Counted from the stretch's first letter, positions 3,301 through 64,000 are shown. The stretch: 64,000 nucleotides of DNA from Nitrosopumilaceae archaeon (GCA_965207375.1 CBDBMG010000002.1:32001-96000), one strand, 5' to 3'. The notes: a model not told the origin generated them from the sequence alone. Translations and numbers: made by a program.

Positions 3301-3870
3301 GGCATGGAGTACCATCATGACCGTTCCCCAGAATTTTTAAGTTGAAAGATTTACACTAGTAACCTGTGATTCATAGTGAAACACTTAATTGTGGGCTTGG
3401 GATTTGAAATTTCTGATACTCGACATATGCAGGACACATCAAATGTTCTTGAGCATAAAATTACAAATAATGCCGTAAAGCATTAATTAAATTAATAGTG
3501 CCAATAACATGACATTTCCTATTAATTGAAAATTTTCTATAGATTTCCTGCAGCTTTTTAAGGCAGGAAATTTGACTTTTCCAATGATATAGGTACATAA
3601 GATGTGCCCTGTACTTTAGGATTCATTCAGTTCTAGGTGAACTGTTCTACAATAAAGGAAAGGTGCATAAGAATTCCATATGTCTGATGCAGGCCAGGCA
3701 AAGGAAATTTGATGGCTGCATGTCCTGCATATTTCCTTACCTCGCAGACTATAGGAAATGTCTATATTTTTCCAGTGTTAATAGAACACTAAAAACTATG
3801 TTGTCAAAACTAGTAGTAAACAAAGGACGTGATTGGGACCAAGTGTTAGGACCATTTTTATTTGCGTATC
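330..3870 (+). mobile_element. Degenerate Ty3/Gypsy LTR retrotransposon gag-pol remnant (RT, RNase H, integrase) with stops and frameshifts
   Basis: ORF fragments: RT 1561-1983 (DYRSIN..YPLP, MPFGLTNAPATFQRLM, IYLDDIL); RNase H 2060-2551 (WVDA..HPVAYA..E, VYTDHQAL); integrase 2988-3320 (YFYWPGM..C..C, GMDF, DYLSKWPE, HGVP), resuming at about 3778 (NRTLKTML..DWD..L..FLFAY). Possible zinc-knuckle remnant near 350. No LTRs recognised. Confidence 0.92.
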
Positions 3871-23422: not shown

Positions 23423-26400
23423 TCAATCATATGTCAATCTGTTTGGTGGTCTAATGTCAGCACCAGTTTGGGTTCTAGTCATGATTCTGTTTCTTTCAGG
23501 TTCAGCACTTGTGGTCGAAGTAGAATAGTCATCTGTTCGGCTCAGTCTTTGGTTGAGATGTTGTCTGTTCCTGCGTACTAGTCCGGAAGGTGTAGTCACA
23601 AGGTAAGATCGGGGAGTACCAACATTGGATACAACTCTTCCAGGGGTTTGGTTATTACCAGTTGTCACCCACACTAGTGAATCATCAGGTAATGTATCAA
23701 CTGGTTTCACACGATGTCGACGGTCATAGTCCTTTTTCTGCTTCTCTTTAAACTTGTTTTCTTTTTGTTGAAAATCAGGAAGGAAGTGCCATTGCGGAGT
23801 GAAATGATTGGCTGTTTGAGGAATGTCTGTCTTGACTTTTCTACCCATTGAAAGCTCTGAAGGGCTGAAGTTACACCATGGAAGTGGTGTGGATCGATAG
23901 CTAAGCAATGCTAAATAAGGATCATTTGTTTGCCTTAATAATGCCTTTATGATTTTCACTGTCCTTTCAACCAAACCATTGCTCTGTGGGTAGTGAGGGC
24001 TGCTTGTAATATGATTGAAACCGTAAGTATTAGCAAACTCTTTCATATCACTAGAATCAAACTGTGGTCCATTGTCACTCATCAGCACAGAAGGAATACC
24101 ATGGCGAGAGAAAATGGATTTAAGACTGGAAATTACTGACTTGGAAGTGGTAGAAGTGAGTTGTATTACTTCTGGGTATCTCGAGAAGTAATCCACAACT
24201 AATAGGTAGGTCGACCCATTAAGTTGGAACAAATCAGCTGCAACTCTTTCCCAAGGATGATTCGGCAAAGGTGTAGTCAGTAGGGGTTCCCTGGGGTTGG
24301 GAGCTAGCTTCACGCATTCTGGACATTTTTGCACAAAAGCTTCTATATCTTTTGAAATTCCTGGCTACCAAACGGAGGAAGTTGCTCTGAGACGGCATCG
24401 CACTATGCCCTGGTGACCAGTGTGTATCTTCTGTAACGTTACTGCTTGTAGCTGCTTTGGAACTACTATTCTTCCCCCATAAAGGAGTAGCTCGTCATGA
24501 AATTGCCTCTGACACTCCAGTAGGGCATTAATTCAGGATCATTGCAGATTTTTGGCCATTCTGATTTGCAGTGAGAGATAACTCGGGAGCAAACTGAGTC
24601 TGTTGCTTGAGCCTTTTGGTACACTTGAAGTCGCTGGCAAGTGAGAAGTAATAGTAGCAATAAATATTTCTGTTTCAGATTGCTTCTCTCATGTTTGAGG
24701 ATCAGTATTGTTGTCCCTCAGTGGAGCTCTAGATAATGTGTCTGCAGTATAGAGAAGTTTCCCAGGAACATGTTGAATTGAGTAGCTGAATCTCATCAGT
24801 CTCAGACGAAATCTCAATACTCTTGGTGGGAGATTGTCTAGCTGTTTACACCCTAATAGTGGAACTAGTGGTTTGTGGTCAGTCTCAATACTGATATGTT
24901 TTCCCAGAATGTAGGTAGAGAATTTCTCACAAGCCCAAGTGATAGCAAGAGCTTCTTTCTCGATTTGAGTATATCTAGTCTCTGTCTCTGACATTGCTCG
25001 GGAAGCATAAGCCACTGGTCGCCATTCCTGGTTTTTCTGAAAAAGCACAGCACCCAAACCATGAGAGGAGGCATCAGCAGAAATTTTAGTGTCTGCCTGT
25101 GGGTCATACAAGGCCAAAACTGTGTGTGCTGTTAGTTCAGCTTTCACCTTAACAAATGCTTCCTCTTGAGCTGGTCCCCAGTTCCAGGCTCGTTTGGTGC
25201 TGAGCAACTCTCTCATTGCCTTAGACAGATCAGCAATTCGTGGAGAGAATTTCCCCAACTGATTGACCATCCCCATGAAACGTCTCAGTTCAGTTGTAGA
25301 CTTTGGTGAAGCCATTTTGCTAATTGCGGCTGTCTTCTGGGGATCAGGAGAGATGCCTTTCCCATCAATAGTGTGACCTAGGAAAGTTAATGAGGTTTTG
25401 TTAAACTCACATTTGTCTTTGTTAAGGGTAACACCAGCTGCTTGAATTTTCTCCAAGGCTGCAGTCAATCTGGTATCATGTTCCTTCTGGTCTTTCCCAA
25501 AGATCAGGATATCGTCCATCAAACATAGAACCCCTGCTAGACCATCAAGGATTGTGCTCATTCTTTTCTGAAAATGTTCAGGAGCACTTGAAATAACAAA
25601 TGGGAGCTTATTAAAGTAGTAGCGCCCAAAGGGTGTAATAAATGTGGTTAACTCACAGGAATCCTTAGACAGTGGTATCTGCCAGAATCCACTGTTGGCA
25701 TCTAGCTTGCTCATCACAGTGGCTCCAGTTAGTTGTGCTAATGTCTCGTCTACACCAGGTAATGGATGTGTCTCTCTGAGAACACTTTCATTAAGAGGTT
25801 TCAAGTCGACACAAATACGAACATCACCAGACTTTTTGGGAACCACCACCATTCTAGCACACCAGCGGGTTGGCTTGTCGACTTTGGATATCACTCCAAG
25901 CTTCTCCATGCGTATCAACTCCTGCTTAACTTTTACACGGAGTGGTATTGGAACATTTCTCGCAGTATAGAGAGCATAAGGCTTAGCATCTGATTTCAAC
26001 TGGATCTGGTAGTCTCCTTTAAGAGTGCCCAGGCCTTGAAATAGTCTAGGAAAGCTCTTTTGAACATTCCCTGGCTGTATGCTGTCTACCTTAGTGAGGA
26101 GCTGTAGGGCTATGATTGCTGGTAGCCCCAGTAGATTGTTTTTCAGGCCCTCTACGATATAGATAGGCTGCTTGCAGGATCTCCCTTCATAGGTGAGTTG
26201 AACAACCGCTTGACCCAGCACATTTAGTGGTTGATTGTTTGGTCCGCACAAAATTTTGCATGATTTCTCCAGCTTAGTGTTTTTGAGAATATTGTAGGTT
26301 TTGGTAGATATTGCAGTAGCCTCGGCTCCAGTATCAAGCTTGAATAACATCTCCTGGCTATTTATTTTAATTGGAGCTGTCCATGAAGTGCCTTTTATCT

Positions 26401-27232
26401 CATGGATGGTGTCAAGGAAGCTGCTGTTTTCCAGCTGCTCTTCTGAGACTGTAGCAACTGCTTTGCTGCGGCATACTAAACTGTAGTGACCCTTTTTATT
26501 GCATTTGTGGCAGATCACCTGTCTGGCGGGACAGCTTTGTTTCAGGTGAGGTCCTTTTCCACAGTATGAGCATTTTTGACCCTGCGGAGGTCGTGGAGTG
26601 GTACCTTGCGATTGTCGGCTGCGGGAATTTCCGGGTCTCTTAGCTGGCTTCCGTGAACTAAAGGTTTGAACAAGAATTACCCCCTCTGGTTTACTCAAGA
26701 TAGCCTGTTGTCCACGTACTGCTTCTTGTTGACGAACCATTCGTTTTACATTCTCAAGAATCAAATTTGGGTCCATCTGCAGCTTTGTAGAGAGTGAAGA
26801 ATCTCGAATTCCGACGACAATTCGGTCTCGAATCAACTGTTCCTTGAGCTCACCAAATTCGCAGTCTGCTGCTAGACTGTATAAGGAAGTAATGAACTGT
26901 TCAGCAGTTTCTGTTTCCCCTTGGGAGCGTTGATTGAACCGAGCTCTTTCAAAAATCACATTTTTCCTGACTTTGAAAAATTCATTGAATTTCTGTAAGA
27001 CATCTGCAAACTTTTTCTGGCTTTCTACAGTAATGTTTGTTGAGGTTAGCACGTCATCGGCTTCTTCTCCAAGGCAGTAGAGCAGAGTGCTTACTTGGCG
27101 CTCGTAATCTTCTTTAGCCAGCCCTGAGGCAATTCGGTATTGCTTGAAACGTCTCTTCCACTTTGGCCACTCGTCGGGCGAGTTGAAAGGGAACGGAGCA
27201 GGAGTCTGCAGTACCGATGCTAGATATGCCAT
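23423..27232 (-). pseudogene. Gypsy gag-pol polyprotein (gag with CCHC knuckles, protease, RT, RNase H, integrase), disrupted between RNase H and integrase
   Basis: Likely ATG at 27232 (MAYLAS), just after the PBS. Motifs: CSYCGKGPH..C, CHKCNKKGHY..C, KLDTGA, LMDDIL, ADASSHGLG, TDHKPL. Stop at 24689 and frameshifts to about 24334. Integrase rve motifs VAADLF..SDNGPQF..SNGLVER. Confidence 0.95.
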
Positions 27233-27784
27233 ATACCACTTCTGACACCATGTAGCGTTTAGGGGATTATTAATAGCAAAGAACAGCAACTGAACACAGG
27301 GTATAACCACACTCTATTTATAGTACAGTGGGAAAACCTATGGCTAGGATGTTTACAAAGGTGACAGTAAGCTTGTTTACAAAAACAAGTGTGTTTACCT
27401 ATTACAATATCACCATAAAACAAAGTGCTAATAAAAGTGTAAATTATAACTAATTCCATACACAATAACAATGTGTGTTACAGGATTCTATTTACTTAGC
27501 TATAGTGTATGCATTATGTCACAATTGGGAATGCAATATTTTTCATGTTGCAGTGATAAATATACTGAAATAAAAATGTGTGATTTGGAACTGTTTTCCA
27601 AAATCCGGTCACATTTAAATAAATCATAAAATAAATAAATCATATATCAGAGCTGTAGCAAGCTGAAATGAAGTGGTATGACCAGGAGGAGAGTGATGAT
27701 GTGTGACCAAAGTGCAGAAAATTCGAATTTCATGAATATAATTTTTGTGAACTAACATTTTGACAAGAAGAGAAGTAAAAGGCT

Positions 27785-34234: not shown

Positions 34235-35825
34235 ATTATTATTATTAAAATTTAAGGATTAAAGGCACAGCCTGTACAATCCTGAAAATAACTGATTAGC
34301 TAATAAATGTTACAATATAATTAATCACTTATATAATGTTTATAAGACCAAAAAGAATCCAAAGAGTTTTTGAATGAATTTACAGTTGCTGACTCCACCA
34401 CACTCGCTGGCAAACTGTTCCAATTGTTTATAGTTCTCAAAGTAAAAAAGTTTACACGACAGAAGCGTTTTGCATGTGGCTTATAGATTTTGTAGTTATG
34501 GCCCCTGGTGGTAGTATATGTTTGATATCTGAAAAAATCATTGATATCAATATTAAAATGTTGGTTAATTAACTGATATAAGAATATTAAATCTCCCCTT
34601 TGACGTCTGTACACAAGTGATGGCAAGGATAGCTTGGATAATCGTTCTTGATAAGAGTCATGCCTTAACTCAGGAATCAACTTTGTTGCTCTGTGCTGTA
34701 TTTTCTCAATAGCTTGTTGGTCTGTAACATAATGGGGTCCCCAAATAACATTACCATATTCTATGATAGGTCGTATCAATGATTTGTATAGGCAAAGCAT
34801 TGTATCAGCATTAATGTACTCAAAGGATCTACGAATGATCCCAAGAAGTTTATTTGCTTTATTTACAGCAGTTGAACATTGTTTATGAAACGTAAATTTA
34901 TTATCAATCAAAATACCAAGGTCTTTCTCAGCATCAGAAACAGTAATAAAGTCTCCCCCAAGTCTATATTGTCTATAATGCTGATTAGAACCAATATGCA
35001 ATACCTTACATTTGTCCACATTAAAATAAAGTTGCCATTCACAAGACCATAGAAATAGATTATTGAGATCTTGTTGTAATTGTAGATAATCATCATCCGA
35101 CTGGATTGTGCGGTATATTTTTGCATCATCAGCAAATAATACTAATTCACTCTGTACAACTGATGGTAGATCATTAATAAATATGTTAAAGAGGAGAGGC
35201 CCTAAAATGGAGCCTTGCGGGACACCACTTGTAACTGAGGTCCAACTAGATGATTCATTATTTAATACCACCTTTTGTTTTCTCCCAGTAAAATAATTGT
35301 ATAACCAGTTGTAAAGTTTACCACCAATACCATAAGCTTGTAGTTTACTAAGGAGACGGGTATGAGGAACGGAATCAAATGCTTTTTTGAAATCTAAATA
35401 TATAATATCAACAGGAATTCTTTGTTCAAGTGCCTTAGTCCAGTAATCCATAGCAATTAACAACTGAGTGGTGCAAGATCTGCCAGGCATAAATCCATGC
35501 TGATTTACACTAAGAAGATGATTAGAGTTCAAATGATCATAAATTTCATCTTTAATAATTGATTCCATAAGCCTAACAATAGAGGAGGTTAAACTTATTG
35601 GTCGATAGTTATTGGGTAGATGACGGTTTCCTTTCTTAAAAATTGGTGTTACATGGGCGGATTTCCAGTCCTGTGGTAATAAGCCTGTTTCAAGAGATTG
35701 TGTAAATAATATCGAAAGTGGTATACATATTTGCTCAGCTGTTTCTCTGAGAGCAATCAGTGGCCAGCCTTCAGGGCCTGGTGATTTTCCTGGATTGATG
35801 TCAAGTAGCTTTTTATGTACAATCA
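34235..35825 (-). mobile_element. 5'-truncated CR1/L2-group LINE; RT ORF 34321-35835 is open
   Basis: Motifs PGPEG, NYRPISLTS, QHGF, YLDFKKAFDSVPH, SGVPQGSILGP, LFADD, RGDLI, TRGH. Short (TAA)n tail. Confidence 0.95.
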
Positions 35826-36223
35826 AACAAAGCAACAGTATACACTTTAGTAATGTAAAAAATTAAAACCCACAATCAATTGTATATGCAATGTTTAACT
35901 ATTTTGACATTTGTCAAATGCATAATACAGCTACCTAACAATGCATATAAGCTATGTATACTAAGTACTAAAGACTTCCAACTATTGGTGTGTAAATTTA
36001 AACCCACAATTATTTGTTATAAATGCTACTATAAAACTAGCTAGTAAACTTCAACAACAACGGTAACTTAATAGTATGGCAACAAAGTGATTGCTAGCAT
36101 AAGAAATTCATGTAACTGTTTGGAAAACCTTCTTTAATTTCAAAGAGGCTTGATATCTTGCATATCTTGCATATCATATTAGATCACATTACCATGTAGG
36201 TCACTAATGTAAATGTGTAATGA

Positions 36224-38863: not shown

Positions 38864-40531
38864 ATTATTATTATTATTATTATTATTGGGTTTGTCAAAG
38901 ACAGGGGGCACAGAAGGCTATAAAGCCTATAGGAGTGCACCCTAATTACAAGATACATACAATTACAAAGCAACAAATACAACAAACACTAAATTACGTA
39001 GCTATAATATAATGCAAACATACAATTACAAGAACAATACAGAATACACCAAAAAAATAAAACAAATTAGGTACATCTAAGAATCTACACATAAAAATTT
39101 ATACACAGAAGAACGAAAAATATTACGACTGGAAACAGATACAATAGAAAAAGGTAGTCTATTCCAAATAAAAATAAGATTAACAAAAAAGGAGTAACGA
39201 TAAGCATTAACCACTGACTGTTTACAAACTAGTGTCATTGGGTGAGACTTGGTGGAGGATGTATTAAATTGAAAATAATCAAAAAAAGACATAGCAAATC
39301 TGTTGTGAAATAGATCAAATAAAAACAATAAACAAGAAACGGTAAGTCTAGTCATAATAGATGGCCAGCCAAGTCTAGAGATGCAAATGTCAGAGGTAGG
39401 GTCCCATGAACAACATGACGGGTCAAGCCGACTATTACATATCCAACGGGCAGCACGCTTCTGGATTGACTCAAGAACCAGAATATCCTTCTGATAGTGA
39501 GGTAGCCAAACCTGATAGGAATATAGGAACATTGGAAGGATCAAAGCACAGTATGCATGAGACTTAGCAACTGAAGAGCAGCAGTACAATTTTCTCCTCA
39601 ATAAATTCAAGACTCCAGTTGCCCTAGAACAAACACTCTTGCAATGATCAGACCAAGTTAAACGACTATTAATAACAACACCCAGGTATCGGACAGATTC
39701 ACTCCATTTAAGAGAATAGTTAGAGCATTGATATGTAAAATGAATTGGCAAACGCTTATTAGTAATACAAAGAGCCTCACACTTATGTGGTTGCAGTGAC
39801 ATCTGCCAACGTGAACACCACTGCATAAAGGAATCTAGATTGCTCTGAAGAAAACTACAATCATCATATGAAACAATTCGATGATATAGTGTAACATCAT
39901 CAGCATACATTTTGTAGTCACACGTAATAACATTATCCAGATCATTCATATACACAATAAACAACAGTGGGCCCAGAATGGAACCTTGAGGTACCCCAGA
40001 AGTCACTGGAAGCCAATTGGAGTAAATGCCATTTAATACTACTCTCTGTCTGCGAGTAGTCAGATAATTTCTAAACCAGAGTAACAAAGAGCCACCAACA
40101 CCAAACAATTGTAATTTCAAAAGCAATCGTTCATGAGGAATTGAGTCAAAAGCTTTAGACATATCTAAAAATAAACAATGAACACTCTGGTGGGAATTTA
40201 ATGTATTGCCCCAATCATTAACAGCAGAAAGGAGAAGAGTTGTGGTGGATCGTTGACGGCGAAAGCCATATTGGTGGTTGCTCAATAACTTGTTTTCTTC
40301 TAGCATTGAATACAGTTTAGCATGAACAATCTTTTCCAGCACCTTTGAAAGGATACAAGTTAGACTAATGGGGCGATAATTAGATACACAATGTTTATCA
40401 CCTTTCTTATAAACAGGACAAATGTTGGCACTCACCCAGTCCAATGGTAAAACAGAATCCTGAAGGGATTTGTTAAATAGATCAGCCAAAGACGATGACA
40501 ATTGTGCAGCTCCTTCTTTTAGTAAACGGGC
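38864..40531 (-). mobile_element. 5'-truncated CR1/L2-group LINE; RT ORF open to 39077
   Basis: Motifs NYRPISLT, QYGFR, FLDMSKAFD, SGVPQGSILGP, YADD, YLGV. (TAA)n tail at about 38861-38887. Apparent 10-bp TSD ACAGATAATT at 38854-38863 and 40532-40541. Confidence 0.95.
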
Positions 40532-40543
40532 ACAGATAATTTC

Positions 40544-40715
40544 ATGGCTGGTTCGGCTATTCAGTACTCTAACTACTACAGTGAGTTAGAAGGTGAAGCG
40601 AAATCCAGATATGAGCAAGAGGATGCTTGGTCGTGTGGATCCCTATTCAGTGTCGCCTGGAAGGCAGCACCAGTAGCTCTTCCTCAGTGGAATGGTATGA
40701 ATGGAACCGAACTAC
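40544..40715 (+). pseudogene. Truncated N-terminus of a DNA-transposon accessory ORF (ISL2EU/Kolobok-associated style)
   Basis: MAGSAIQYSNYYSELEGEAKSRYEQ then, after frameshifts, MLGRVDPY..VEWYEW. This fits a Y..L....K.RY..K.....DPY pattern recalled from such elements. Confidence 0.4.
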
Positions 40716-44542: not shown

Positions 44543-45527
44543 TCATTAAGTACGGTAGTACTTAATAGTAGGGATTGGTAAGAAATTGTACGGCTTCGGG
44601 AAATTTCGCGCTTTAAAAATCAACCTTGCAATAGGCTTTACCCGAAAAAACCAGCTGGAATGCATTGGTAAGGCTGTAATGATGCTGTACCTTGGTTAAA
44701 CGAAACGACAAGTCGAATATTTCGACCTACAGCCAACTTTGAAAATTTCGGAAATTCACCTGTATTTCGTCTGACCGAGGGGTCGCCAACGACCATGAAA
44801 TCTCGTACACCTTCCATGAAATCCGTCAAGAAATCCATAGAAATATTTAGAAATACAGAAATCTGAAATCTTGTTGAGGTAGTTTTGAACCGTATATTTA
44901 CGTTTTTTTACGTAAACTTAAGTTATTTCCAAGTAATGCACAGTCGTGCGCGAGGTCGTGCGCAGTTAGCGAGGTCACGAGGACCGTAAAATGGAGGATA
45001 ATGACTTTGTGTTTTCAAAATGTTCGAGTAGTCCAAGGAGTAGCTAGAAAATAATCAGCAAAACCTTCGAATTCCTGCTGCATAAACCTGATTGCTAAAA
45101 TATGACTGAAATCTTTCATGAAATCCTTAAACTCATTTAAAATGAAATACAAAAGAAATCTTGAAATAACTTAAATATTTGAAATCTCGTACGCGAAGTC
45201 GCTTCGTTGGCGACCCCTCGCGTCTGACTGCCAGCCAGCCTGCCGTAAGATCGGGTTGCGCTAGGTGTAGGGCTCCAGAAATTTCACACAATAAAGGTAA
45301 TGGCGGCGTATTTACGAAAATCTTATTCCGAAGACGATTTACCCACTGCGCCATGGCGATTCCCTTTATCCTTCGTTCCTTTCCTTGTTCTTCTTTATTC
45401 CTTAGCAAGGTGTTTTCGCGTGTACTTTATTACATCGTGAACTTCGAGATTATAGCCTTGGACAAATAGCTTTTGCTGTTTTTCGAGCGTTATTTGCTAT
45501 CACACAGCTGCTTTGCCATGTCAGCGC
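44543..45527 (+). mobile_element. Family-1 Helitron-like copy C, 3'-truncated
   Basis: A|TCATTAAGTACGGTAGTACTTAAT start. Highly similar to 32982-33620. Homology stops abruptly at ..gccatgtcagcgc. Confidence 0.88.
44776..45220. mobile_element. MITE nested in copy C
   Basis: TIR CGAGGGGTCGCCAACGA / TCGTTGGCGACCCCTCG with an 8-bp TSD, CGTCTGAC. Absent from copy B. Confidence 0.9.
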
Positions 45528-45604
45528 ACCCGCTTCGCATACCGTATACGGGATATATACTGGGTCATATTACTATTTTTATACAGTAATATCCTGATCC
45601 TATA

Positions 45605-46380
45605 GGTGGGGTATATTTCACGGAACGGAACGGAACGGAACGGAACGGAACGGAAGTAGTATAAAATGCGGAACGGAAGTATAATATACGGAACAGAAAT
45701 ATTTTGGATAGCCATATGTACGTAGCTGCAAGTTAAGTGACCTTTGTGTACTTCTAACAATAACATAGTCTTGTTTAGTGCATGGCCAGACCCCTTAACG
45801 CGTCTGGAGTGTTAAATGTTAGCTATCAAATTAATAGTCTTAGAGGCCATAGCCATGCATAAGCCGAGCCATAAGCTAATGTGCAAATTCCCCACCTGGA
45901 GTATACACGCACATACATATAGCTATACTATCTCAGTATTCCGAATCTGGCTACGACAGAGCATAAGGATCTGACGCGGATTGAACTGTCAAATAACTAG
46001 CTAGCTACGTAAGTGTATAGCTATACAGTCGTATAGCAGCTAACCAACAGGGCAGAGGCTAGCTGGTCTAGCTACGTAGCTAGCTATTTCCTATTAATAG
46101 CTATAGTTAGTTAATTTGTGCCTCGAGTTGTGCTGCTACCATGCCGGCACTACATTTATAATGTACGCGGCCATGCAAAGTTTGCTAAAACCATAGATTA
46201 TACTAGCTATCTATGTTAAAATATATGCTAGCTCAAGCGAGTTTGTTAGCAAGGATGAATGAATGCATGAATTAATACAATCCGAAATACAATCGGATAT
46301 AATCAGTGAAAAAAAGTTTGTCGCTTCCGGCGGAAGTGTTCCGTTTCCGTTCCGTTCCATTCCGTGAAATATACCCCACC
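45605..46380. mobile_element. Mutator-like (MULE) MITE
   Basis: TIR GGTGGGGTATATTTCACGGAA with (CGGAA)n subtermini and a 9-bp TSD, GATCCTATA. Confidence 0.88.
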
Positions 46381-47602
46381 GATCCTATATGACTAATATA
46401 TGACAAGTATTTCTACATGATTTTTAAATCACGATGAATTATCTCGTGAATTATAGACATAGTAAATGAAATCCAGATCTCGATGCAGATCCAACCAGCA
46501 ATCCTGATTGATCTCCTGATTTTACCGAGATTTTGTAAGTTATGATTACCATTATGATTATGCTATCATTAGCTACTTACAGAAACTATTCCTTATCTTA
46601 GTTATGCTGTGTCCTCGGATTTGTTGCCGGTTTAAGTTATTCTGATTTGCCCGCCCGGAATTGCCACAATTTCAGTAGTTCATTGGAGGAGTATAAAACA
46701 GGCTTACCGATCCTTTTAGTATGTACATAGGGTTTAGGCGTTGCCACCTGCTTATTATTTTGCCAATTACGTACTAGCATTCACAAAAGGCAGAGCCTTT
46801 GTGGCATATAACCATCAAGTTCAGGGTTGTCTGTATAAGCATATATATGAAGAGGGTGTTTCAGTGGCCTTCTTCAGCACCCACATTATTCCCACCAAGT
46901 TGTACTTGTAGCTACTACTTGCTGAAAGTAATATCTACTGTGATCCTCCCTGTAGGAAATTATATACATAGTGGGACAATACATGATAAAGGAATACCGA
47001 TGTATGAGGGTTGAGCAATAATAAAATTTTGTCACGATATACGTATCACGAGAGTAATTTATCACAATAATCGATATTAATTTTAGCTACATGCAGTAAC
47101 AGTACTACATGCAGTCTAAAGGCACTAAAATTATGAACACAGGGTGAAGTGTTTTACTGATGTCACAAAATCCGGATACTTTTGAGAAATCAATAGTCAC
47201 TATGTTTACAATAATATTGTGTTGTCCGATATTACGATACTGATTATCATGACACTTTAATATGTATCACGAGAAATGATAATATTTCCCAACCCTATAT
47301 GATGCGTCATGTCAAAAGTATCATGATACCATGATACATTGCTGGTTTTTTAAAGCATTTGTGTGTATATTCTCTATGATAAACACCTGAAGCCAATGAT
47401 ATAGTTACATGGGATAAATCTAAACCCCAGTAAGTATGTACACAAAGCCTTTTCTCATATCATCTTCAACAAAAGTATTTATGCATTACAAATATATTGA
47501 CACCGCGAACCGAGTATCATTGCATCATTATTATAATGGTGAATATGCATATGTTGTATTGCAATACATCAATGCACCACCCCAGCATGTGATGTGTGTA
47601 CC

Positions 47603-47647
<45 letters not shown>

Positions 47648-48029
47648 ATAGGGTTTGTTTTATGTGTGAAACTATGTACAAGCACAGCCACCCTTCCTGC
47701 TGTCATACTCTATATAAGACTTTGTTTACCACCCATTTGTTTACCACCCATTTGTTTACCACAACACTTATGTACATAATACAACTAAATATCATCTACC
47801 TCATTTCAAATTTCCAACATATTTCAGCAACCCTTTAGCTATCCTGTTCACTACTGCCACACATTTGATTAGGTGCCATTGTTTGTGCAACCACTTTATA
47901 GTGTCAAAGTTTCCAAGCTTCATGATTATGATAATTTTATAACAAATGTAACAATATTATTTGTATTCCAGGACAATACGTATATACATGAAATCATTGT
48001 AGTATTATGTACGTATGCACATGTATTAC

Positions 48030-48136
<107 letters not shown>

Positions 48137-48225
48137 CGTGTACATGTCCATAAGTAACTACATATTTTGTGGTATATGGCTATGTTTTAAATAGAATACA
48201 GCTTACGTATATCATTGTGGCAATA

Positions 48226-55870
<7,645 letters not shown>

Positions 55871-56007
55871 TATGTATGACTGCTGTATAGGTTGACTCAC
55901 ATGTTGCAATTGATTATAGATTTAGTATGGAATTAATCTTCCAAAACAAAAAACTGGGAAGCTACGTAGCATAATTCACACACCCCATAGAATTACTAAT
56001 ATATATT

Positions 56008-56097
<90 letters not shown>

Positions 56098-56332
56098 GCA
56101 TTTATATGTACATTGTACATACATACACAGCATTTGCAATTATTAATGAATGATCATGATCATATGCATGCATGATCAGCAAGTGAATGATCAGAGCAGT
56201 GAAGCATACATACATTTCAACATGTAAGACATGTACATATAAGACAACGCATCTAATCAGTTGAAGAAAATCATGTATACTTGTGAATGTGGAGTGATTT
56301 AAAGTTACATTTTCAATTCATTACCATGCATA

Positions 56333-56572
56333 TGTGACCGGCTCTGGGAAAATCCTCCATGTTAGCGTATTTTACGTAGCTTCACACAAATAGCTGCTAG
56401 TTCCACCAATTTTTAATTCCTTTATATTAAAATGTAGCTGGATCATTTGTCAACTAATATGCAAGTTTCTACAACATAACAAGAAATGGTTAAAGAGTTA
56501 TGACTTTTTGAAGTTCTAAAATGGATCAAAATTTGCACACTAACATGGAGGGTTTTCGCAGAGCCAGTCACA
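56333..56572. mobile_element. TGTGACC-ended MITE, TA-flanked
   Basis: tgtgaccggctctgggaaaatcctccatgttag / ctaacatggagggttttcgcagagccagtcaca. Confidence 0.8.
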
Positions 56573-57819
56573 TATACGTAGGTGTACATGTTGTCATTAC
56601 ATACTTTCATTATGCATGTATATATGTATGCGCATATGCATAATTTATGGTGTACGTATATATATACACACATGTACATGCATCTTGCCAATATACGTAC
56701 ACTGAAACAGCTGGTTATAGTAATGTATAATATTATATCAAATTTTGAAAGCGAAAAATAGGCCTAGAGATGAGTACACATACATGCACATGCTGGAATA
56801 ATTCCAATACCGTATAGCAGGATATTTTCAAAATCAAAAAAAACATTAGTGGAAATGATTTCGAAAAAATATTTTCGAAAACCTATGATAGCATTTATAT
56901 AGCTATAATAGTTACCTAGCAATTTCGAAAATTCTTGACCATTTTTGAAAATTTAACCATTCAAAAATTTCCCGCTATACGGTAACAGGAATCGAAAGCA
57001 TAAATAATTCCAGGAATAAAAAAATAATGATAAAGGACAGCAATGTCGCATTGATGAATTTTAATGATATCATGATCAATAAATATAATAAACAGATCTA
57101 GAGTCCATCCCATGCAATAGGTTTAATTTAACAACAAGTTTCAGATCGTGCCCCAGATCTAGAGACGTGTTGCTATATTATTATATATACTGTTGCATGT
57201 GGACTGCTTTAATAGAGTATCTTGATCTTGCTAACCTGGAATCACTCAATGGAATATTGAGAATAGAAAGCTTGCCAAAAAGATTGTTTGTAAAAGCACA
57301 AATATATAATAATGTGCTCATCTTGAGGAAAGAGTTTTGATTCATTGATTCACTTCATGCATGAGAAGTGTGTGTGTGCATCCGTGTGTGTGTACACGTG
57401 AGTGTGTGCGTGTATGTGTGGCATGTGAGTGAAATTATATTATGTATAACATATATATATGTGTATAGTAATTACGTACACATGTAAAAGAAATTATATA
57501 TATGTGTATAGTAATTACGTACACATGTAAAAGAAATTGCAAATTAATTTTTTCTTGTGCACATGATTGTGTAATGCCATTTACATACGTATGTATTGTG
57601 CAAGTGTTATACACATAAAAACCACTTGATCTGATAATAATATGTTTATACATGTATGGTTAGTGAACGTACAAGCTGACAGTACATACATGCATATGTA
57701 GATATTATTTCCTACTGTTACCATTTACCATACATACAAGGTATATACTTGCACATGTACATGTACACAATCCATGATAATGCATATGGTTTGGTTTCAC
57801 TTAGAGGTACTAGATCGAG

Positions 57820-60800
57820 TTATTTCAAAAACAGGTCCTTTTGATATTAATCTCTGCAGTTTTTCCTGCTTCTCAGCTCTTTTTTCTACCAATTCAACTA
57901 ATCTTATTGAGTTTTTCAGAACTTCTACTGGAATGTCTTGGTAACTCATCGATTTCCGAGTAAATTCTACAGGAAATGTGATATAATTATATTATGTGCA
58001 GCTTTCATAACAACATTCCTAGCTACATATAGTTACGTGTACATATACATATACTATAATCAAGAGTATATTGAACACTTGCGTATCCTATTATTATAAC
58101 AATAGGGGTGAAACAAATATCAATCAAACAATCTTTGTCTATAACACAAACAAAGCAAAATAATCTGAGTATTACTGGTACGTGGTATGACCAATACAAA
58201 AAGGGATGCAAAATGTGATATTAGCTTAATAACAGCTATTAACAAGCATTAAGTTTCTGTTTACTTGTGGATTTTAACTGTTATAATGAGGGAATACTTA
58301 ATAGTTAATATGCAAATTCAAAATAAATTCGAATAATAATTAACAACGAATACCAATTATTCGGTAATATTTGTTTCAGCCCTAATACAGTTTACCACAG
58401 TCTATCGATGAAAATAAAATAATTGCAAAGCCGTATGTACATACATACATACATACATATGTAGGCAGGGATTTCAATGTAAGTATATAAGTGACTGTAT
58501 ATACGTACGTACATGTATGTGTATACAAGCAAGTGCATAGCATGTGTATATGTGTAGTGCACATGTGTATGAGTGCTTGTCTGTGTCAATACGCACCTTG
58601 TTTTCTCTCAGTTATTTTAAGTGGGCTTGGACCCTGCAAATTTGTCACAAGTTCACTCAAGTCATCATCAGCACTCTGCAATGTCAAGGTATGTATATTC
58701 CATGAGGTACATAAATTTTACAGTTTTACTTTTATTGACTCCAAGTAAGATTCACGCATATGTCTTTGTATTCTCCAGTTTTGTACTTCCATTTCTTCAT
58801 CTGATTCCTCCTCACTCTCACTTGTTGATGCTCCATTACGTGACTCATCATATGCATTATGAGGCAAATTACATTCTAAAGTTGTGATTCACAAAGCATT
58901 GTTGTTATTCACAACCACAGGTTCTATAGATTATGAGACAATTTTATGCGTAGCTACGTATGTAGCGAGCTACGTATGTATAATTTTTATGTATAACTTG
59001 GATTCCACAAACTTTCAAAGGCTTATACGTAGCTATTTAGTTCAAAAGTTCCTAACTTGGCATGATATTTATGTAATACTGATACTATTTTCTACTGTGA
59101 TCATAACTCAAAGTCATTTATTAAAACTGCTGCACTGCGGTAAATGTGCACCCTTTTGGGAGCGAAAACAAATAATTTATTTACGTACAAGATACGGATT
59201 TATATTTTAGTGCATTTATTGTAACTAATAGTAAATCTCTGTGGCAAAAGCAGGCATTCAACCTGTCATACGAACTTTCATAGGTTGTAATCGACATTCA
59301 TTTATGCATTATATATACAGTGAAAAATGAATAAGTTGGTTAGTTGCTTCTAGCTACAGACTAGATTATTTTAGCCAAACATGCAGTTAAGCATACAAAC
59401 ATAGTATTGACAACAAAATGAGATGATTGAATCAGACTTTATATTATAATAATCCTGATCACACACAATACTGAGTATTGTGTACTGTTTTACCTTGAAT
59501 TGAAACAGCAAATGAACTGCTTTGTTGACAACAAAGTGATTCACTGTAATCAGCATCAGTAGATGAATTATACTCTATATATGTACGTATACAGGTTGGC
59601 AGTAACATGTATGGTAAATCGCTATATCATACATACTATGCCACAAACACACAAAGAAGAGGCAATGCACACTTTATAGTATACACATGTACGTACGTAG
59701 CTCATACATTATACCTTGATTTGATGCACTAATACTGTGTTGCGGTTGCTCAAGACAAGCAAACGATTGCATGTCACTACTAGGATTCACATCAGAAATT
59801 GCACAAGATGGGCCTTGAAGTAAATCTAATAAGAAAACACAATACAAAATACATAATACATGATTCCATACAGTGTCAAGACATACGTATAATACAATTA
59901 ACATATGATTTCTACACTCTAAATAATAATTCAATGTGATCACTAGGCCTGATTTGAATTATGAAAAGTACTATGTATACGTATGTATGTACATACAAAT
60001 TATGTCCACATGGTTTTTAGCAGCTACGTAGCTAAGCAGTTAACCAGGTGAAACCATCAATAACTATATCTAGGGTTGAAATAAAAAATCTATATGCTTA
60101 GCTGTAACTAGTTCATAGTTTCTGCTAGTATATAGCTGTCAAGTACATACCTTGATTTGATGTGGCAACAGGATTTTGGTAAGAGCTAGCAATTTCATCT
60201 TCTGAACAGTCATCAGAACCAAGACATGTTTCTGTTTCAGAATCTTCTGTGTCAATTGTATATATACGTATATTACATACGTACATATGTTTAGCAGAAA
60301 ATATTACATAATAAATTAGTCACACATAGATGATTCTACTTTGTGAATCATGCAAGACCTGCTAATTTTTTGTCCTGCTGAGGGTATAAAAATTTGAGAC
60401 TCGTTCACCTTTACGATGCCTCTTTATTCACATTTTTGCTTACATTCACTGTTTTTATGGCTTTCAAGCCATCAAATGCACTGCTGGTCAAAACTAAACA
60501 TATAAAATGCTGAATACAGTGAAACTTCTAAATAACGGACACTTTGGAACCAGCTAATTTTACTTTTATAGAGAGGTTGTCCTCTTTAAGAGGTGTGTAG
60601 TAGCTATAGCTACATGTAGAAAATATGCAAATGTGAGATACATATATGGCAGCATCATACAGGTACGTAGTTATATATACATATATGTAGCTATAAACCT
60701 TGTTCTGATGTTGTACAATGCCTAGTCAAAAATGCATCCAATTCATTTGTGTCTATATATTTCGCAAAACACTGGAGAGATTTTAGCTGGTCAAGACATT

Positions 60801-63800
60801 TAATACTTGCTTTTTTCAAAAAACATATCTTTCCCAATTTGTGTAAATGTATTTCATCTTCTGAATGCTTGTAGAATTTAGCCTTTCTTATTAAGTGTTC
60901 ATAAATACCAATATAATAGTGGATACAATTCAACATTTCATCTTTAATTCTAACAACTTCTTCTTGAGCTCTTGATATTTGTTGGTAGAACTGAACAGCT
61001 TGATACTTCATTGAATTTGGAACTGTTGATTCACTATATAAACAATCTGCGTAAATCTGACTGGACAGATTTACAGCCTCTGGCCAAGACAAATGGCACA
61101 ACGGATTAATCCCAGTATTATATTCATTCAAGCACTTCTTTAGTGATTTGGTGACTACTGTGATTCGTCTTGCTAAACGAATAGCAATCTTTTGTCCATC
61201 TAGCAAAATATGGTGACAACAAAACCTTGGGCTATAGTATAGCTATGTATAACTTATATACTACGGCATATCATGTACACCCTTTAGGATTACAAAATAC
61301 GTAAATATCCTGTGATGCAACAAACATGTTTTAGTAATACGATTTGCCTAAATACGTATGTCAAGAAAAAAGCAGCTAATAATAAATCTTGCTGGTGTAC
61401 TGGAATGCTTTTGATATCTTGGTCAAAGTAGGCCTATGTTGGCTATGTACGTATGTAAAGTGCAAAATATACATGTACATACACTGATCGATGCACTTTC
61501 CCTTAGACATCTAGCTACTGTACCGTATACGTCAAAACAGTCGAGGGGGAAAACTTTCGTGGTTAGAGCAAAAACGAAAATTCAACGGGAAAACTTTTGT
61601 GGTAGAAGCTTCTTGTAATAATGAATGCCTAGTCTAGTGAAGTTTTCGACGGGAAAACTTTCGCGATTGAGCAAAAACCGCGAAAGTTTTCTGCCTCGAC
61701 TATTTTGACATATACGGTATTCCTTTGGGAGTTGTATATGTTACTATGATCACACAATTTCAACACGGCATAACATAACTATAGCTACATACCTGCATAT
61801 TTTGACTTCATCCTAAGTAAAAACCACCTTTCTCGTGCATATTGTCTTATCTGAATCTTCAGTTTGCCTCTTAGATTTGACTTTATCACTTTCTTAGTTT
61901 CCTTATATGCTTGACAGCTAGGTGTCCAACGTGAAATTCCATGTTCCTGCTCAATCTTTTACAGTAACATTTCTATCCTAAAGTATATAATGACATAGCT
62001 ACAACAGCTAGCTATATACGTACTTTAAATAGATAATATTTAAAATAGCATTAATAGTTATGTACGTAGCTACAAATGTGCATGCTATCTGCTTTTAGTC
62101 TGTAGATACCATAAACAGTAAAAAGAAAACTTTCCTGGATTTTCAATAAACCGTAAAACTGTTCCCTACTATTTTTAGAAATTTAACTCCTGTATGCTTT
62201 CATTCTTGCTAAGCAAAACTGCAAAACTTTTCCTACGTACATTATGCATGAACACGTTAAATCGTAAAAGTTTTGTCACTTATGGTATAGCTACGTAACA
62301 CTTCATGAAATACTGATACCTTTACTTACTTTATGAGATTACAAGTTACAGCTTGCATAGTAGTGCTATCAATTGTTGACTGTTGCAAAGAATTTCTAAT
62401 AATGCCAAATGACAATTTGTAATTGAATGTAAACATTAAGCTAGCTACTGCATGGGTACATACAAAAATATAGGGCGAGTAAACTTGCACCAGCGATGTA
62501 TAGCCATTGGCACCTTTGATTATGACGTCACCATCTTAGTATATAAAATAATTTATAATTATATATTAATACCTGATGGATAGAAAAGAGTCAAGATGTC
62601 TTATATAAGTTTTTTGCCATGTTGGAGGAACACTTCTTGAAACTAAGAAACATGTACAATGCATTTTCTATGTATGTAGCTAGATAATTAAATGTCTACA
62701 TATTTTACTAATACAAACTTAATTAGGTAACAACTTCCCAATACAATAGCTATACCAATATAGCTATACAACACACAATGTCATACCCAATTCATCAGAA
62801 AAGTGAATTTTAGCTTCATGTGCCCATGCAGAAATGCTTGCCTCAGTCACCTCCTCTGTACAATTATTGTACATATACATATGTACGTATATATAGCTAT
62901 ATGTATTATATTATATATATGCTTAATTATAAATTAATAGTATGAATCCTTTAACTATAATTATTTCACTTAGGACTAGTTGAAAGTATAGCTAGTTGTG
63001 TGTAACATGAGAAATTTCTAACTAGATTTGAATCCTTGCTTACAGAAGCTAAGTACATAGCTGCACAGACCAAAGATTGCATTAAGGATTTGTTTTATGT
63101 AAAGGTATATATACATATGTATACATATACCTGGAGATTCTGCCTGCAAATTTTGTAAATTTTCCTTGGCTTCTGATAATGCATGATTTGCATTATCCAT
63201 ACGTCTACACAACAGGACACCTATACATAGAAATCAAATATACACATAGATAGACAGATACATACACATATGAAACACAAAAAATCATGATCCTAATTAT
63301 AGCCACTATTTCTCGGATTTACCTATATTCTCAGTAGCATATCTACCATAATGTAAAAGCGCATGACTGAGTACATCAGTCCTATGTGATGGCCTCATTT
63401 CTTTAGTCATAGCAGCAAACCTCCTCAAATATGACCAAAGCCTTTCTACCGCTTCACCATCACTGAGGCCATAACCAGTGATATTCCTTGGGTTCCTCAA
63501 GACCTAATCAAAATACATGGACTTGTATAATGCAATAATGTATTTATGTAGCTACGTATACCTGACATTCGGCTTTGTGTCCATACGCATGGAACACAGG
63601 CACAGCAAAAGAAAACTTTGACAATAGATCATCACGTTTATTTGCCTATATATGCATATATGTGTATATATCTTTAAAATAATTTTCTAACTTCTAAATG
63701 CTTTGATAGCACACAAGCAATGTCATACATTGCTTGTACTTCATGATTACGGTACATGGAGTTCAGGCGTTCAAGAATGTACACGCAATAGGCAATTCTA

Positions 63801-63982
63801 TTATAGAAATATATCCAAGTAGCTATTTATCATTAAAGAGATATACCTTTCTCCATGAAAAAGGTTGATAAAAAGTAATGGATATTCATGGCGACACACG
63901 ACGCCCATTATGGCTGTCTCGCTTAATGCTGCAAATCTACTACGTGATCTTAAAGCGTGGCCTGCCAAAAATTCATTACAAT
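57820..63982 (-). mobile_element. Spliced KDZ (Kyakuja-Dileera-Zisupton) transposase gene; 5' part lies beyond the window; one premature stop
   Basis: Consecutive GT-AG exons read DCNEFLAG..LSETAIMGVVCRHEYPLLFINLFHGER | IAY..MYDIACVL | FAVPVFHAYGHKAECQ | PRNITGYGLSDGEAVERLWSYLRRF..KEMRPSHRTDVL, which are KDZ core motifs. A helical region follows (EHGISRWTP..ERWFL..KYA|DGQKIAIRL..RAQEEV). In-frame TAA at 61959-61961. The probable last exon ends at 57820. Confidence 0.9.
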
Positions 63983-64000
63983 CCTATGAAACATATAAAC

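Follow-up and report, generated by a model that had tools for sequence, protein, structure and literature searches.

Does a 64,000-nucleotide stretch of DNA filed under Nitrosopumilaceae archaeon (GCA_965207375.1, CBDBMG010000002.1:32001-96000) hold, towards its right end, two genes that merely face each other, or one transposon that encodes both a transposase and a companion protein? We refer to the whole stretch as the window; it corresponds to C3:32001-96000 of a four-contig, 4.3-Mb assembly. An original prediction, made from the sequence alone, had read the region as a large KDZ/Zisupton transposon carrying an HMG-box gene. The element belongs to the KDZ (Kyakuja-Dileera-Zisupton) superfamily, as its PF18758 catalytic domain, its N-terminal CxC cluster, and the termini, target duplication and several copies of its family show, and it is very probably a two-gene transposon in which a multi-exon transposase gene and an integral accessory gene converge. 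KDZ elements, which count among the largest DNA transposons and the least studied and have been described in animals as single-gene elements, are themselves already known, as is their carriage of extra genes; what appears to be new here is a two-gene KDZ family whose companion gene encodes an HMG box, a GTF2I-like repeat and a beta-barrel. Such a fully delimited, animal-type family, whose conserved second gene has a clearly DNA-binding composition, offers a tangible case in which to study how the ends of giant cut-and-paste elements, here 14-24 kb apart, are brought together.

The transposon runs from window position 45527 to window-equivalent position 69072 (C3:101072), a total of 23,546 bp, and its right end thus lies about 5 kb beyond the window. 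The predicted start at 45527 falls exactly on the terminal motif's first base, while the predicted end at 64000 falls short of the true one; the expectation of a KDZ element exceeding 18 kb in animal DNA is borne out by an element of 23.5 kb in sponge-like DNA. Its terminal inverted repeats are 168 bp long and perfect, with the first bases 5'-CACCCGCTTCRCAT, and the termini read CACCCGC...GCGGGTG, that is, 5'-CAC...GTG-3'. Once a nested insertion resembling a miniature inverted-repeat transposable element (MITE) is removed from the left arm, both arms agree at every base for 168 bp inward from the motif CACCCGCTTCGCAT; the corresponding inverted-repeat matches, 45513-45604 and 46381-46479 against 69084-68905, have E values of 4e-37 and 3e-48. 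The first 600 bp of each end contain no subterminal 9-mer repeated three times or more. A larger relative of the 776-bp MITE lies at C4:423960-425333. The parts of the element that frame its genes are as follows.

45527..45604, unstranded: outer 78 bp of the left terminal inverted repeat, with the first bases 5'-CACCCGCTTCGCAT; matches the reverse complement of 69072-68995 (window-equivalent) at every base
45605..46380, unstranded: nested MITE-like insertion of 776 bp that splits the left inverted repeat and does not belong to the KDZ element itself; 43-bp inverted ends, 9-bp duplication GATCCTATA
46381..46479, unstranded: left terminal inverted repeat, inner part, its first 9 bp being the duplicated target of the MITE; all 99 bp identical to 69003-68905 (window-equivalent), inverted
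45527..64000, unstranded: portion of the element inside the window; the remainder, with the N-terminal transposase exons and the right repeat, extends to 69072
window-equivalent 68905-69072: right terminal inverted repeat, 168 bp

Matches to the Pfam KDZ family occur at five places in the assembly, namely the window copy (locus A), locus B, a duplicate of locus B, and loci C and D. In the window the matches lie on the minus strand, at 63801-63983 (28.5 bits), 63674-63826 (16.7 bits) and 63306-63503 (41.9 bits), the cut-off for each being 26.6, and the PF18758 matches of locus A together span profile positions 53-213 of 217. Past the window end, an exon at window-equivalent 66068-66340 matches the CxC1 cysteine cluster PF18802 at 45 bits (cut-off 26.9), which is the best of the cysteine clusters in this transposase (CxC2, 35.4 bits; CxC3, 25.6 bits). 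A scan of 103 same-strand frames, each 36 amino acids or longer, gave no SWIM or CxC4 match at E<=0.01, although short exons could mask a weak domain, and a homologue search with the C-terminal transposase exon returned no full-length relatives. Exon borders were set in part from contigs of three small sequencing runs (X8, X9 and X12) that contain GT..AG joined, intron-less forms of both genes, forms that are absent from the large run X5. A single X9 contig links 61199 to 61793. The exons of the transposase gene, from the N-terminus to the stop, are these.

window-equivalent, beyond the window, minus strand: N-terminal transposase exons, with an ATG near 67249, a zinc-finger exon at 66738-66998, the CxC1 exon at 66068-66340 and a conserved exon at 65426-65665
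63306..63983, minus strand: KDZ catalytic-domain exons, in frames 63306-63503, 63556-63627, 63677-63826 and 63804-63983 (PF18758 at 41.9, 19.4, 16.7 and 28.5 bits, respectively)
61793..61958, minus strand: exon upstream of the C-terminal region; tblastn identity 56% to locus C and 44% to locus B; X9 contig join
60699..61199, minus strand: conserved C-terminal helical region with no Pfam family; 44% identity to locus C and 32% to locus B
59494-59574, 59715-59825 and 60151 to about 60319 (this last border approximate), minus strand: tail exons; X8 and X9 joints refined to canonical sites, frame open
58718..58875, minus strand: last coding exon, an acidic, serine-rich tail with the stop at 58718-58720; joint 58875>59494 in X8 and X9, canonical GT-AG chain, open frame

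Facing this gene on the plus strand is an accessory gene of about 350 amino acids, with seven exons in our model, whose product would contain, in order, an HMG box (its coding sequence interrupted by a 3.6-kb intron), a conserved motif in the middle, a single GTF2I-like repeat and, at the C-terminus, an SH3-like beta-barrel. A sponge protein of 377 amino acids, P0133, is colinear with these exons and carries HMG_box (26.9 bits, cut-off 25.4), a single PF02946 repeat, the GTF2I-like repeat (47.8 bits), and the same C-terminal domain. The splice borders of exons 1-3 come from a GT/AG and frame search, and contig joints were examined over window positions 53900-67500.

48226..48322, plus strand: exon 1, ATG and first HMG-box helix; donor inferred; BLASTP to P0133 residues 16-34, within its HMG_box, E 2e-5
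51980..52155, plus strand: exon 2, remainder of the HMG box; borders inferred; colinear with the HMG exon of locus B
52275..52424, plus strand: exon 3, conserved middle motif GGT..GKFL..PYSFLGYL; borders inferred; tblastn with P0133 residues 95-135, E 2.5e-5; weaker match to locus B
54001..54182, plus strand: exon 4, GTF2I-like repeat; acceptor 54001 or 54017, donor 54182 set by contig joints
54235..54310, plus strand: exon 5, linker; joints 54182>54235 (52-nt intron) and 54310>55449, GT..AG, open frame
55449..55511, plus strand: exon 6, linker; joints 54310>55449 and 55511>55565 (53-nt intron), GT..AG, open frame
55565..55870, plus strand: last exon, encoding the small SH3-like beta-barrel; stop at 55868-55870

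The frame that holds exon 2 (51964-52167) scores 21.3 bits against HMG_box_2, slightly below the cut-off of 22.4, and the top six PDB matches of this second half of the box are all HMG-box proteins (HMGB1, NHP6A, SSRP1; E 0.009-0.06). The domain noted in the original prediction as GLP..KHPSSYG is real: it is a GTF2I-like repeat, which exon 4 matches at 40.9 bits (PF02946, E 2.6e-10, cut-off 27), with direct PDB matches to TFII-I (2d9b, E 1.1e-4) and GTF2IRD2 (2e3l, E 7e-4). Exon 3 belongs to no Pfam family, no further Pfam domains were found in the 103 same-strand frames, and no homeodomain exon was found in the window copy. The C-terminal beta domain that had also been proposed is predicted with confidence by AlphaFold2 (mean predicted local distance difference test score, pLDDT, of 92.5), and the model places it in the SH3-like small beta-barrel class of five to six strands, an assignment of fold class and not of family. 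Its Tnp1/En-Spm-like label, which we take to refer to Pfam Transposase_24, gained no support from Pfam, where at E<=1 none of the three copies of the barrel matches a family. In fold searches the barrel has generic matches, with KOW (Z 5.8, the best), Tudor (5.7) and PWWP (5.5) scoring much like SH3 and the C-terminal domain of retroviral integrase, so that none stands out; Foldseek gave no match at E<=0.001, and the best score in the ESM Atlas was 0.84, to phage-like clusters and below the useful range.

The joined forms connect the exons of both genes. Those on the plus strand are 54182>54235 (present in X8, X9 and X12), 54310>55449 and 55511>55565, and those on the minus strand are 58875>59494, 59826>60151, 59576>59720 and 61199>61793. 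An open frame is maintained across the three plus-strand joints and, after refinement to canonical sites, along the minus-strand chain to the stop at 58718-58720. We regard these forms as expression-like evidence for spliced products of both genes. The convergent arrangement of a minus-strand KDZ transposase and a plus-strand HMG-box gene was seen correctly, as the Pfam KDZ matches, the near-threshold HMG_box_2 match and the PDB HMG matches confirm, and so was the accessory stop at 55870. The stop given for the KDZ gene, 57820, was not confirmed; with the stop at which the joint chain ends, the distance between the two stops is about 2.85 kb rather than about 2 kb. Two of the introns, 54183-54234 (52 nt) and 55512-55564 (53 nt), are very short and are backed by joints in three runs.

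If the two genes form one element, they should be found together elsewhere, and in this assembly they are. Locus B (C3:221733-236107) is a compact element of 14.4 kb with inverted repeats of 928 bp (94% identity) and the same terminal motif as locus A at both ends. It is flanked on both sides by GCCCACT, a perfect 7-bp target duplication (expected by chance about once in 16,384) whose eighth base is mismatched. Its accessory gene has the same exon order as that of locus A, with an additional homeodomain exon at the 5' end (24.6 bits), and scores 23.3 bits for HMG_box_2 (cut-off 22.4) and 34.1 bits for the GTF2I-like repeat PF02946 (cut-off 27). The order of HMG box, middle motif, GTF2I repeat and barrel is kept between loci A and B. 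The duplicate of locus B lies on C4, where C4:1-52537 is 99.8% identical to C3:200001-255794 in reverse orientation; as it is near-identical over more than 50 kb, we do not count it as an independent copy. The duplicated region of C3 and C4 resembles haplotigs or an assembly duplication. Locus C lies on C4 at about 611-635 kb, in a region with three element ends in the same orientation (C4:610127, 611295 and 634581), and the terminal motif is present at two of the locus C ends. The flanks of two locus C ends are 7-bp reverse complements (GTCTGGT and ACCAGAC), again with an eighth base that does not match, a pattern that inversion of one junction, or aberrant transposition, would give. This family makes 7-bp target-site duplications. 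Locus D is a divergent KDZ-like open reading frame (ORF) at C3:443336-443818 (Pfam, 34 bits) without an accessory gene.

When every one of the 96,165 six-frame ORFs in the assembly was searched with a hidden Markov model (HMM) of the barrel, four places matched, which are loci A, B, C and the duplicate of B, or three independent loci. All four matches are convergent with the KDZ gene, downstream of it and at most 5 kb away, and all three GTF2I matches in the assembly fall at loci A, B and the duplicate of B, with one PF02946 match per locus. The original prediction had asked whether the two proteins lie convergently at several loci whose termini agree and whose flanks differ, and at three diverged loci they do. 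Between copies, protein identity is 54-70% for the KDZ exon, 32-44% for the C-terminal transposase exon and 27-31% for the barrel; since the gene pair has been retained at such low identity, the pairing is old and conserved. The terminal motif occurs ten times in the 4.3 Mb at no more than one mismatch, and eight of these occurrences are at loci A, B, C and the duplicate of B; the other two are separate related ends at C3:330300 and C4:610127. The end at C3:330300 is 81% identical over 100 bp to the terminal repeat of locus B and has an inverted partner block at C3:346405-346809, with no KDZ match inside; the interval from C3:330300 to about 346990 is probably a non-autonomous or decayed relative.

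These data bear on two other explanations of the locus. The region is rich in transposons, a MITE sits in the left inverted repeat and short nested repeats are present inside the element, and one could therefore suppose that two unrelated mobile elements lie nested or side by side, the HMG/GTF2I gene coming from another transposon next to or within the KDZ element. We consider this very unlikely, given that orientation and order are the same at three loci despite protein identities of only 27-70%, that a single pair of inverted repeats encloses both genes at loci A and B, with no second pair of ends around the accessory gene, and that only 849 of the 23,546 bp of locus A are multi-copy DNA in this assembly. 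The claim that the accessory gene belongs to the element is upheld by its position, together with the transposase gene, inside the one pair of perfect 168-bp repeats and by the recurrence of the pair at two other loci. It could also be supposed that an ordinary or domesticated host gene pair, or a segmental duplication, is being mistaken for a mobile element, as a target duplication is lacking at the window copy, spliced products exist for both genes and the sponge homologues are annotated by NCBI as ordinary uncharacterized proteins. This we find scarcely credible beside the perfect 168-bp repeats of locus A, the 928-bp repeats and 7-bp duplication of locus B, the one terminal motif common to all loci, and the presence in 4.3 Mb of three diverged copies, of which one is decayed and another has a deletion.

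A number of observations nevertheless weigh against our reading of a two-gene transposon whose second gene aids transposition. At the window copy there is no target-site duplication of 7 or 8 bp, even with shifted boundaries. Its left flank (45228-45526) is a high-copy short repeat, with more than 60 copies on C2-C4, that is cut after GTCAGCG and continues CGTTGTTAAC... in all 14 intact copies inspected; the sequence on the right is single-copy DNA that bears no relation to this repeat, whose missing half was not found within about 25 kb. As the flanks do not match, at least one junction is not the original one, having arisen secondarily by deletion, recombination between copies, aberrant transposition or misassembly, and the window copy, the frames of which look intact, is judged from these flanks to have been rearranged after insertion. 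No empty site or polymorphic insertion was seen, and we infer mobility from the structure of the element. The runs X8, X9 and X12 are of unrecorded kind, with no run on record as RNA. In the window copy, neither half of the HMG box reaches the Pfam threshold by itself; the duplicate of locus B is without 1,877 bp (C3:232445-234321) that include HMG exon 2, and at locus C the accessory gene is reduced to the barrel exon alone. None of 17 related KDZ loci in metagenomes, described below, carries the gene. Finally, DNA binding, DNA bending and an effect on transposition are functions that we infer for the accessory protein by analogy.

How does this element relate to the known KDZ transposons? 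The comparison with the Kyakuja, Dileera and Zisupton clades is one of features and not of transposase phylogeny. According to the accessible part of Kojima 2025 (PMC12730594), fungal Kyakuja elements make 7-bp duplications, have 5'-CA..TG-3' termini and carry extra genes; Kyakuja-1_LB and Kyakuja-2_LB have no terminal inverted repeats, and the described Kyakuja families carry TET/JBP dioxygenase genes. Our element resembles Kyakuja in its KDZ-type transposase, its 7-bp duplication, its CA..TG termini and the presence of genes beside the transposase. It differs in that Kyakuja is fungal, without inverted repeats and with TET/JBP, whereas here inverted repeats of 168 to 928 bp and an HMG/GTF2I/barrel gene are found in animal-like DNA. 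Zisupton, from fish and other metazoans, makes 8-bp duplications, as stated in works that cite Bohne 2012 (PMC9297572, PMC12730594, PMC11343200, as far as these were accessible); the canonical Zisupton transposase has CxC4 and SWIM (PMC11343200), and metazoan Zisupton-type elements are described in the part of PMC9297572 at hand as single multi-exon genes. The KDZ catalytic domain, the multi-exon transposase gene, the terminal inverted repeats and the metazoan host are shared with Zisupton, but that element is described as one large gene with an 8-bp duplication and CxC4 plus SWIM, whereas ours has a second gene, a 7-bp duplication and CxC1 as its best cluster. An 8-bp duplication is seen at neither locus B nor the locus C flanks, where the 7-mer matches and the eighth base does not. 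The KDZ part of the proposed KDZ/Zisupton label therefore stands, while Zisupton proper is not supported by what the sequence offers, namely the 7-bp duplication, CxC1, the lack of a SWIM match and the two genes.

Giant KDZ elements with extra genes have been described in the fungus Cryptococcus (KDZ1-3; PMC11343200) and in the brown alga Ectocarpus and the green alga Chlamydomonas (PMC12477816). These resemble our element in their size of 9-32 kb, in a transposase with CxC1 and KDZ, in having inverted repeats and in containing additional transcribed internal genes. They differ in the 8-bp duplications of Cryptococcus and in extra genes whose product is undescribed, and the accessible parts of these reports describe no HMG or GTF2I-like accessory protein. 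As to the statement in the original prediction that fungal KDZ transposons travel with HMG-domain genes, "HMG" has no occurrences in the available part of Kojima 2025 (PMC12730594). No HMG/GTF2I-type accessory gene in a KDZ element was found in the literature searched, the two founding papers and supplements lying beyond its reach.

What, then, might the accessory protein do? Two-gene DNA transposons with a DNA-binding partner are known, among them PIF/Harbinger, with its Myb/SANT ORF, and En/Spm-CACTA, with TnpA, and host HMGB1 is a cofactor of RAG1/2 and of Sleeping Beauty. PIF/Harbinger and En/Spm-CACTA would resemble our element, by functional analogy, in combining a transposase with a separate protein that binds DNA and aids in finding or pairing the ends. 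All of these systems, RAG1/2 and Sleeping Beauty included, belong to unrelated transposase superfamilies, and in our case it is the element that would encode the HMG function. PMC12730594, in the part that was available, likewise mentions the Myb/SANT partner. Our best explanation overall, which we hold to be probable, is a two-gene KDZ element, which may encode its own architectural and targeting cofactor. The transposase would recognise the conserved CACCCGCTTCRCAT ends through its zinc and CxC modules and perform cut-and-paste transposition, and the accessory protein would serve as the architectural and targeting cofactor of the element, aiding assembly of the paired-end complex. Its HMG box could allow the two ends to pair by bending the long subterminal DNA, its GTF2I-like repeat could contribute DNA binding, and its barrel could dock to the transposase or to chromatin. 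Taken by itself, the role of the accessory protein as a transposition cofactor is plausible but held with rather less than even confidence.

The main rival explanation accepts that the gene is integral to the element and takes it instead for cargo that acts on the host or its chromatin, as an anti-silencing factor or a transcriptional regulator, much as TET/JBP may do in fungal KDZ elements. That fungal cargo has been read as a means of escape from methylation-based silencing (Kojima 2025, PMC12730594, in the part accessible). The nearest folds of the barrel include the Tudor, PWWP and Agenet chromatin readers (Z 4.5-5.7), and related KDZ elements do without this gene and have a PHD and Ulp1-like gene in the same convergent position. 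Yet the barrel matches are generic, with KOW, SH3 and the integrase C-terminal domain scoring alike, and an HMG box joined to a DNA-binding repeat is what a helper of end synapsis would be expected to look like. The present evidence fits both roles, and we regard the cargo role as possible though rather unlikely.

Relatives of the two genes beyond the assembly help to define how widely the pairing extends. A profile built from the three barrel copies matched 132 representative proteins among 1.84 billion at E<=1e-3 and 54 at E<=1e-10, most of them short ORF fragments; one match, P0082, was rejected as a false match to a bacterial repeat protein. In P0094 and P0070 a GTF2I-like repeat, one PF02946 match in each, is followed by the barrel. 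P0094 and P0133 come from one sponge species, are annotated by NCBI as "uncharacterized protein" and carry the precomputed Pfam label PF26133, and a homologue search with P0094 returned proteins of one sponge species only. The fold of whole P0133 is predicted poorly (pLDDT 56), the barrel alone being confident. A search for longer homologues with the barrel alignment returned none, no cluster names were found for 10 of the matches, and a barrel alignment found no related loci in metagenome contigs or genome contigs.

An alignment of the KDZ exon identified 17 loci in metagenome contigs, of which four are weak matches over 22 residues and possibly not relatives. Neither the barrel (HMM, E<=0.01) nor any accessory exon (tblastn, 1e-3) was detected at any of the 17. 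The expectation that other KDZ copies carry the accessory gene thus holds for three of the four independent KDZ loci of the assembly and fails for the metagenome loci. Seven of the latter (L021-L023 and L025-L028) are about 20 kb long and form one multi-copy family with 94-99% mutual identity, in which the convergent position is occupied instead by a 373-amino-acid ORF (L025:15735-16853, minus strand) with matches to a PHD finger (27.5 bits) and to an Ulp1-like peptidase (19.7 bits, slightly under the cut-off). As the accessory gene is missing from these loci, it is not required by KDZ transposases generally; the second gene differs between lineages, and the HMG/GTF2I gene is lineage-specific. 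One such locus spans L025:7483-18139, and at its edge (L025:17993-18841) lies a fragment of a bacterial-type DctM transporter (115 bits), odd beside an element of eukaryotic style. In genome contigs the KDZ exon gave one weak match, in Paenibacillus, which was taken as chance.

The I-repeat is the hallmark of the vertebrate TFII-I transcription-factor family, one member of which, GTF2IRD2, also bears a transposase-derived tail. The accessory protein resembles this family (GTF2I, GTF2IRD1, GTF2IRD2) in having a GTF2I-like repeat, PF02946, above threshold. It differs in having one repeat where the TFII-I proteins have several in tandem, in the partners of that repeat (an HMG box and a beta-barrel, with a homeodomain in locus B), and in being borne by a transposon in sponge-like DNA. 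One may speculate that the I-repeat was originally a transposon module, that in sponges it provides DNA recognition within an architectural cofactor (HMG box, I-repeat and barrel) encoded by a KDZ transposon lineage, that the vertebrate TFII-I genes were domesticated from a KDZ accessory gene, and that KDZ elements have an exchangeable, convergent "second-gene slot", filled by HMG/I-repeat here, by PHD/Ulp1-like in the related family and by TET/JBP in fungi; we think this improbable. With a GTF2I-like repeat now placed on a mobile element from an animal lineage that branched off early, it becomes possible to test where the TFII-I family came from.

The finding of such an element under the name of an archaeon calls for comment. 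Stop-free frames of at least 150 amino acids cover 0.13-0.22 of contigs C2-C4, as opposed to 0.83 of C1, and the window region is eukaryote-like, with short GT..AG introns, microsatellites and repeats that resemble short interspersed nuclear elements. Given these features, and a sponge as the source of the closest named accessory homologues, we read the window as sponge-like host DNA. Contigs C2-C4 look like host DNA that was binned with a prokaryote genome. In practical terms, ORF-based annotation has overlooked the element, as had been predicted, and it lies on host-like contigs filed in a prokaryote assembly.

Other mobile DNA is present in the surroundings. Near locus D there is an uninterrupted ORF of 755 amino acids (C3:448343-450607) that by eye resembles a hAT/ZBED-type transposase. 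Positions 1-45000 of the window consist mostly of retrotransposon coding remnants, with RVT_1, RNase H, integrase zinc-binding and rve matches at 1555-3317, 23426-27313, 34324-35862 and 39080-40585.

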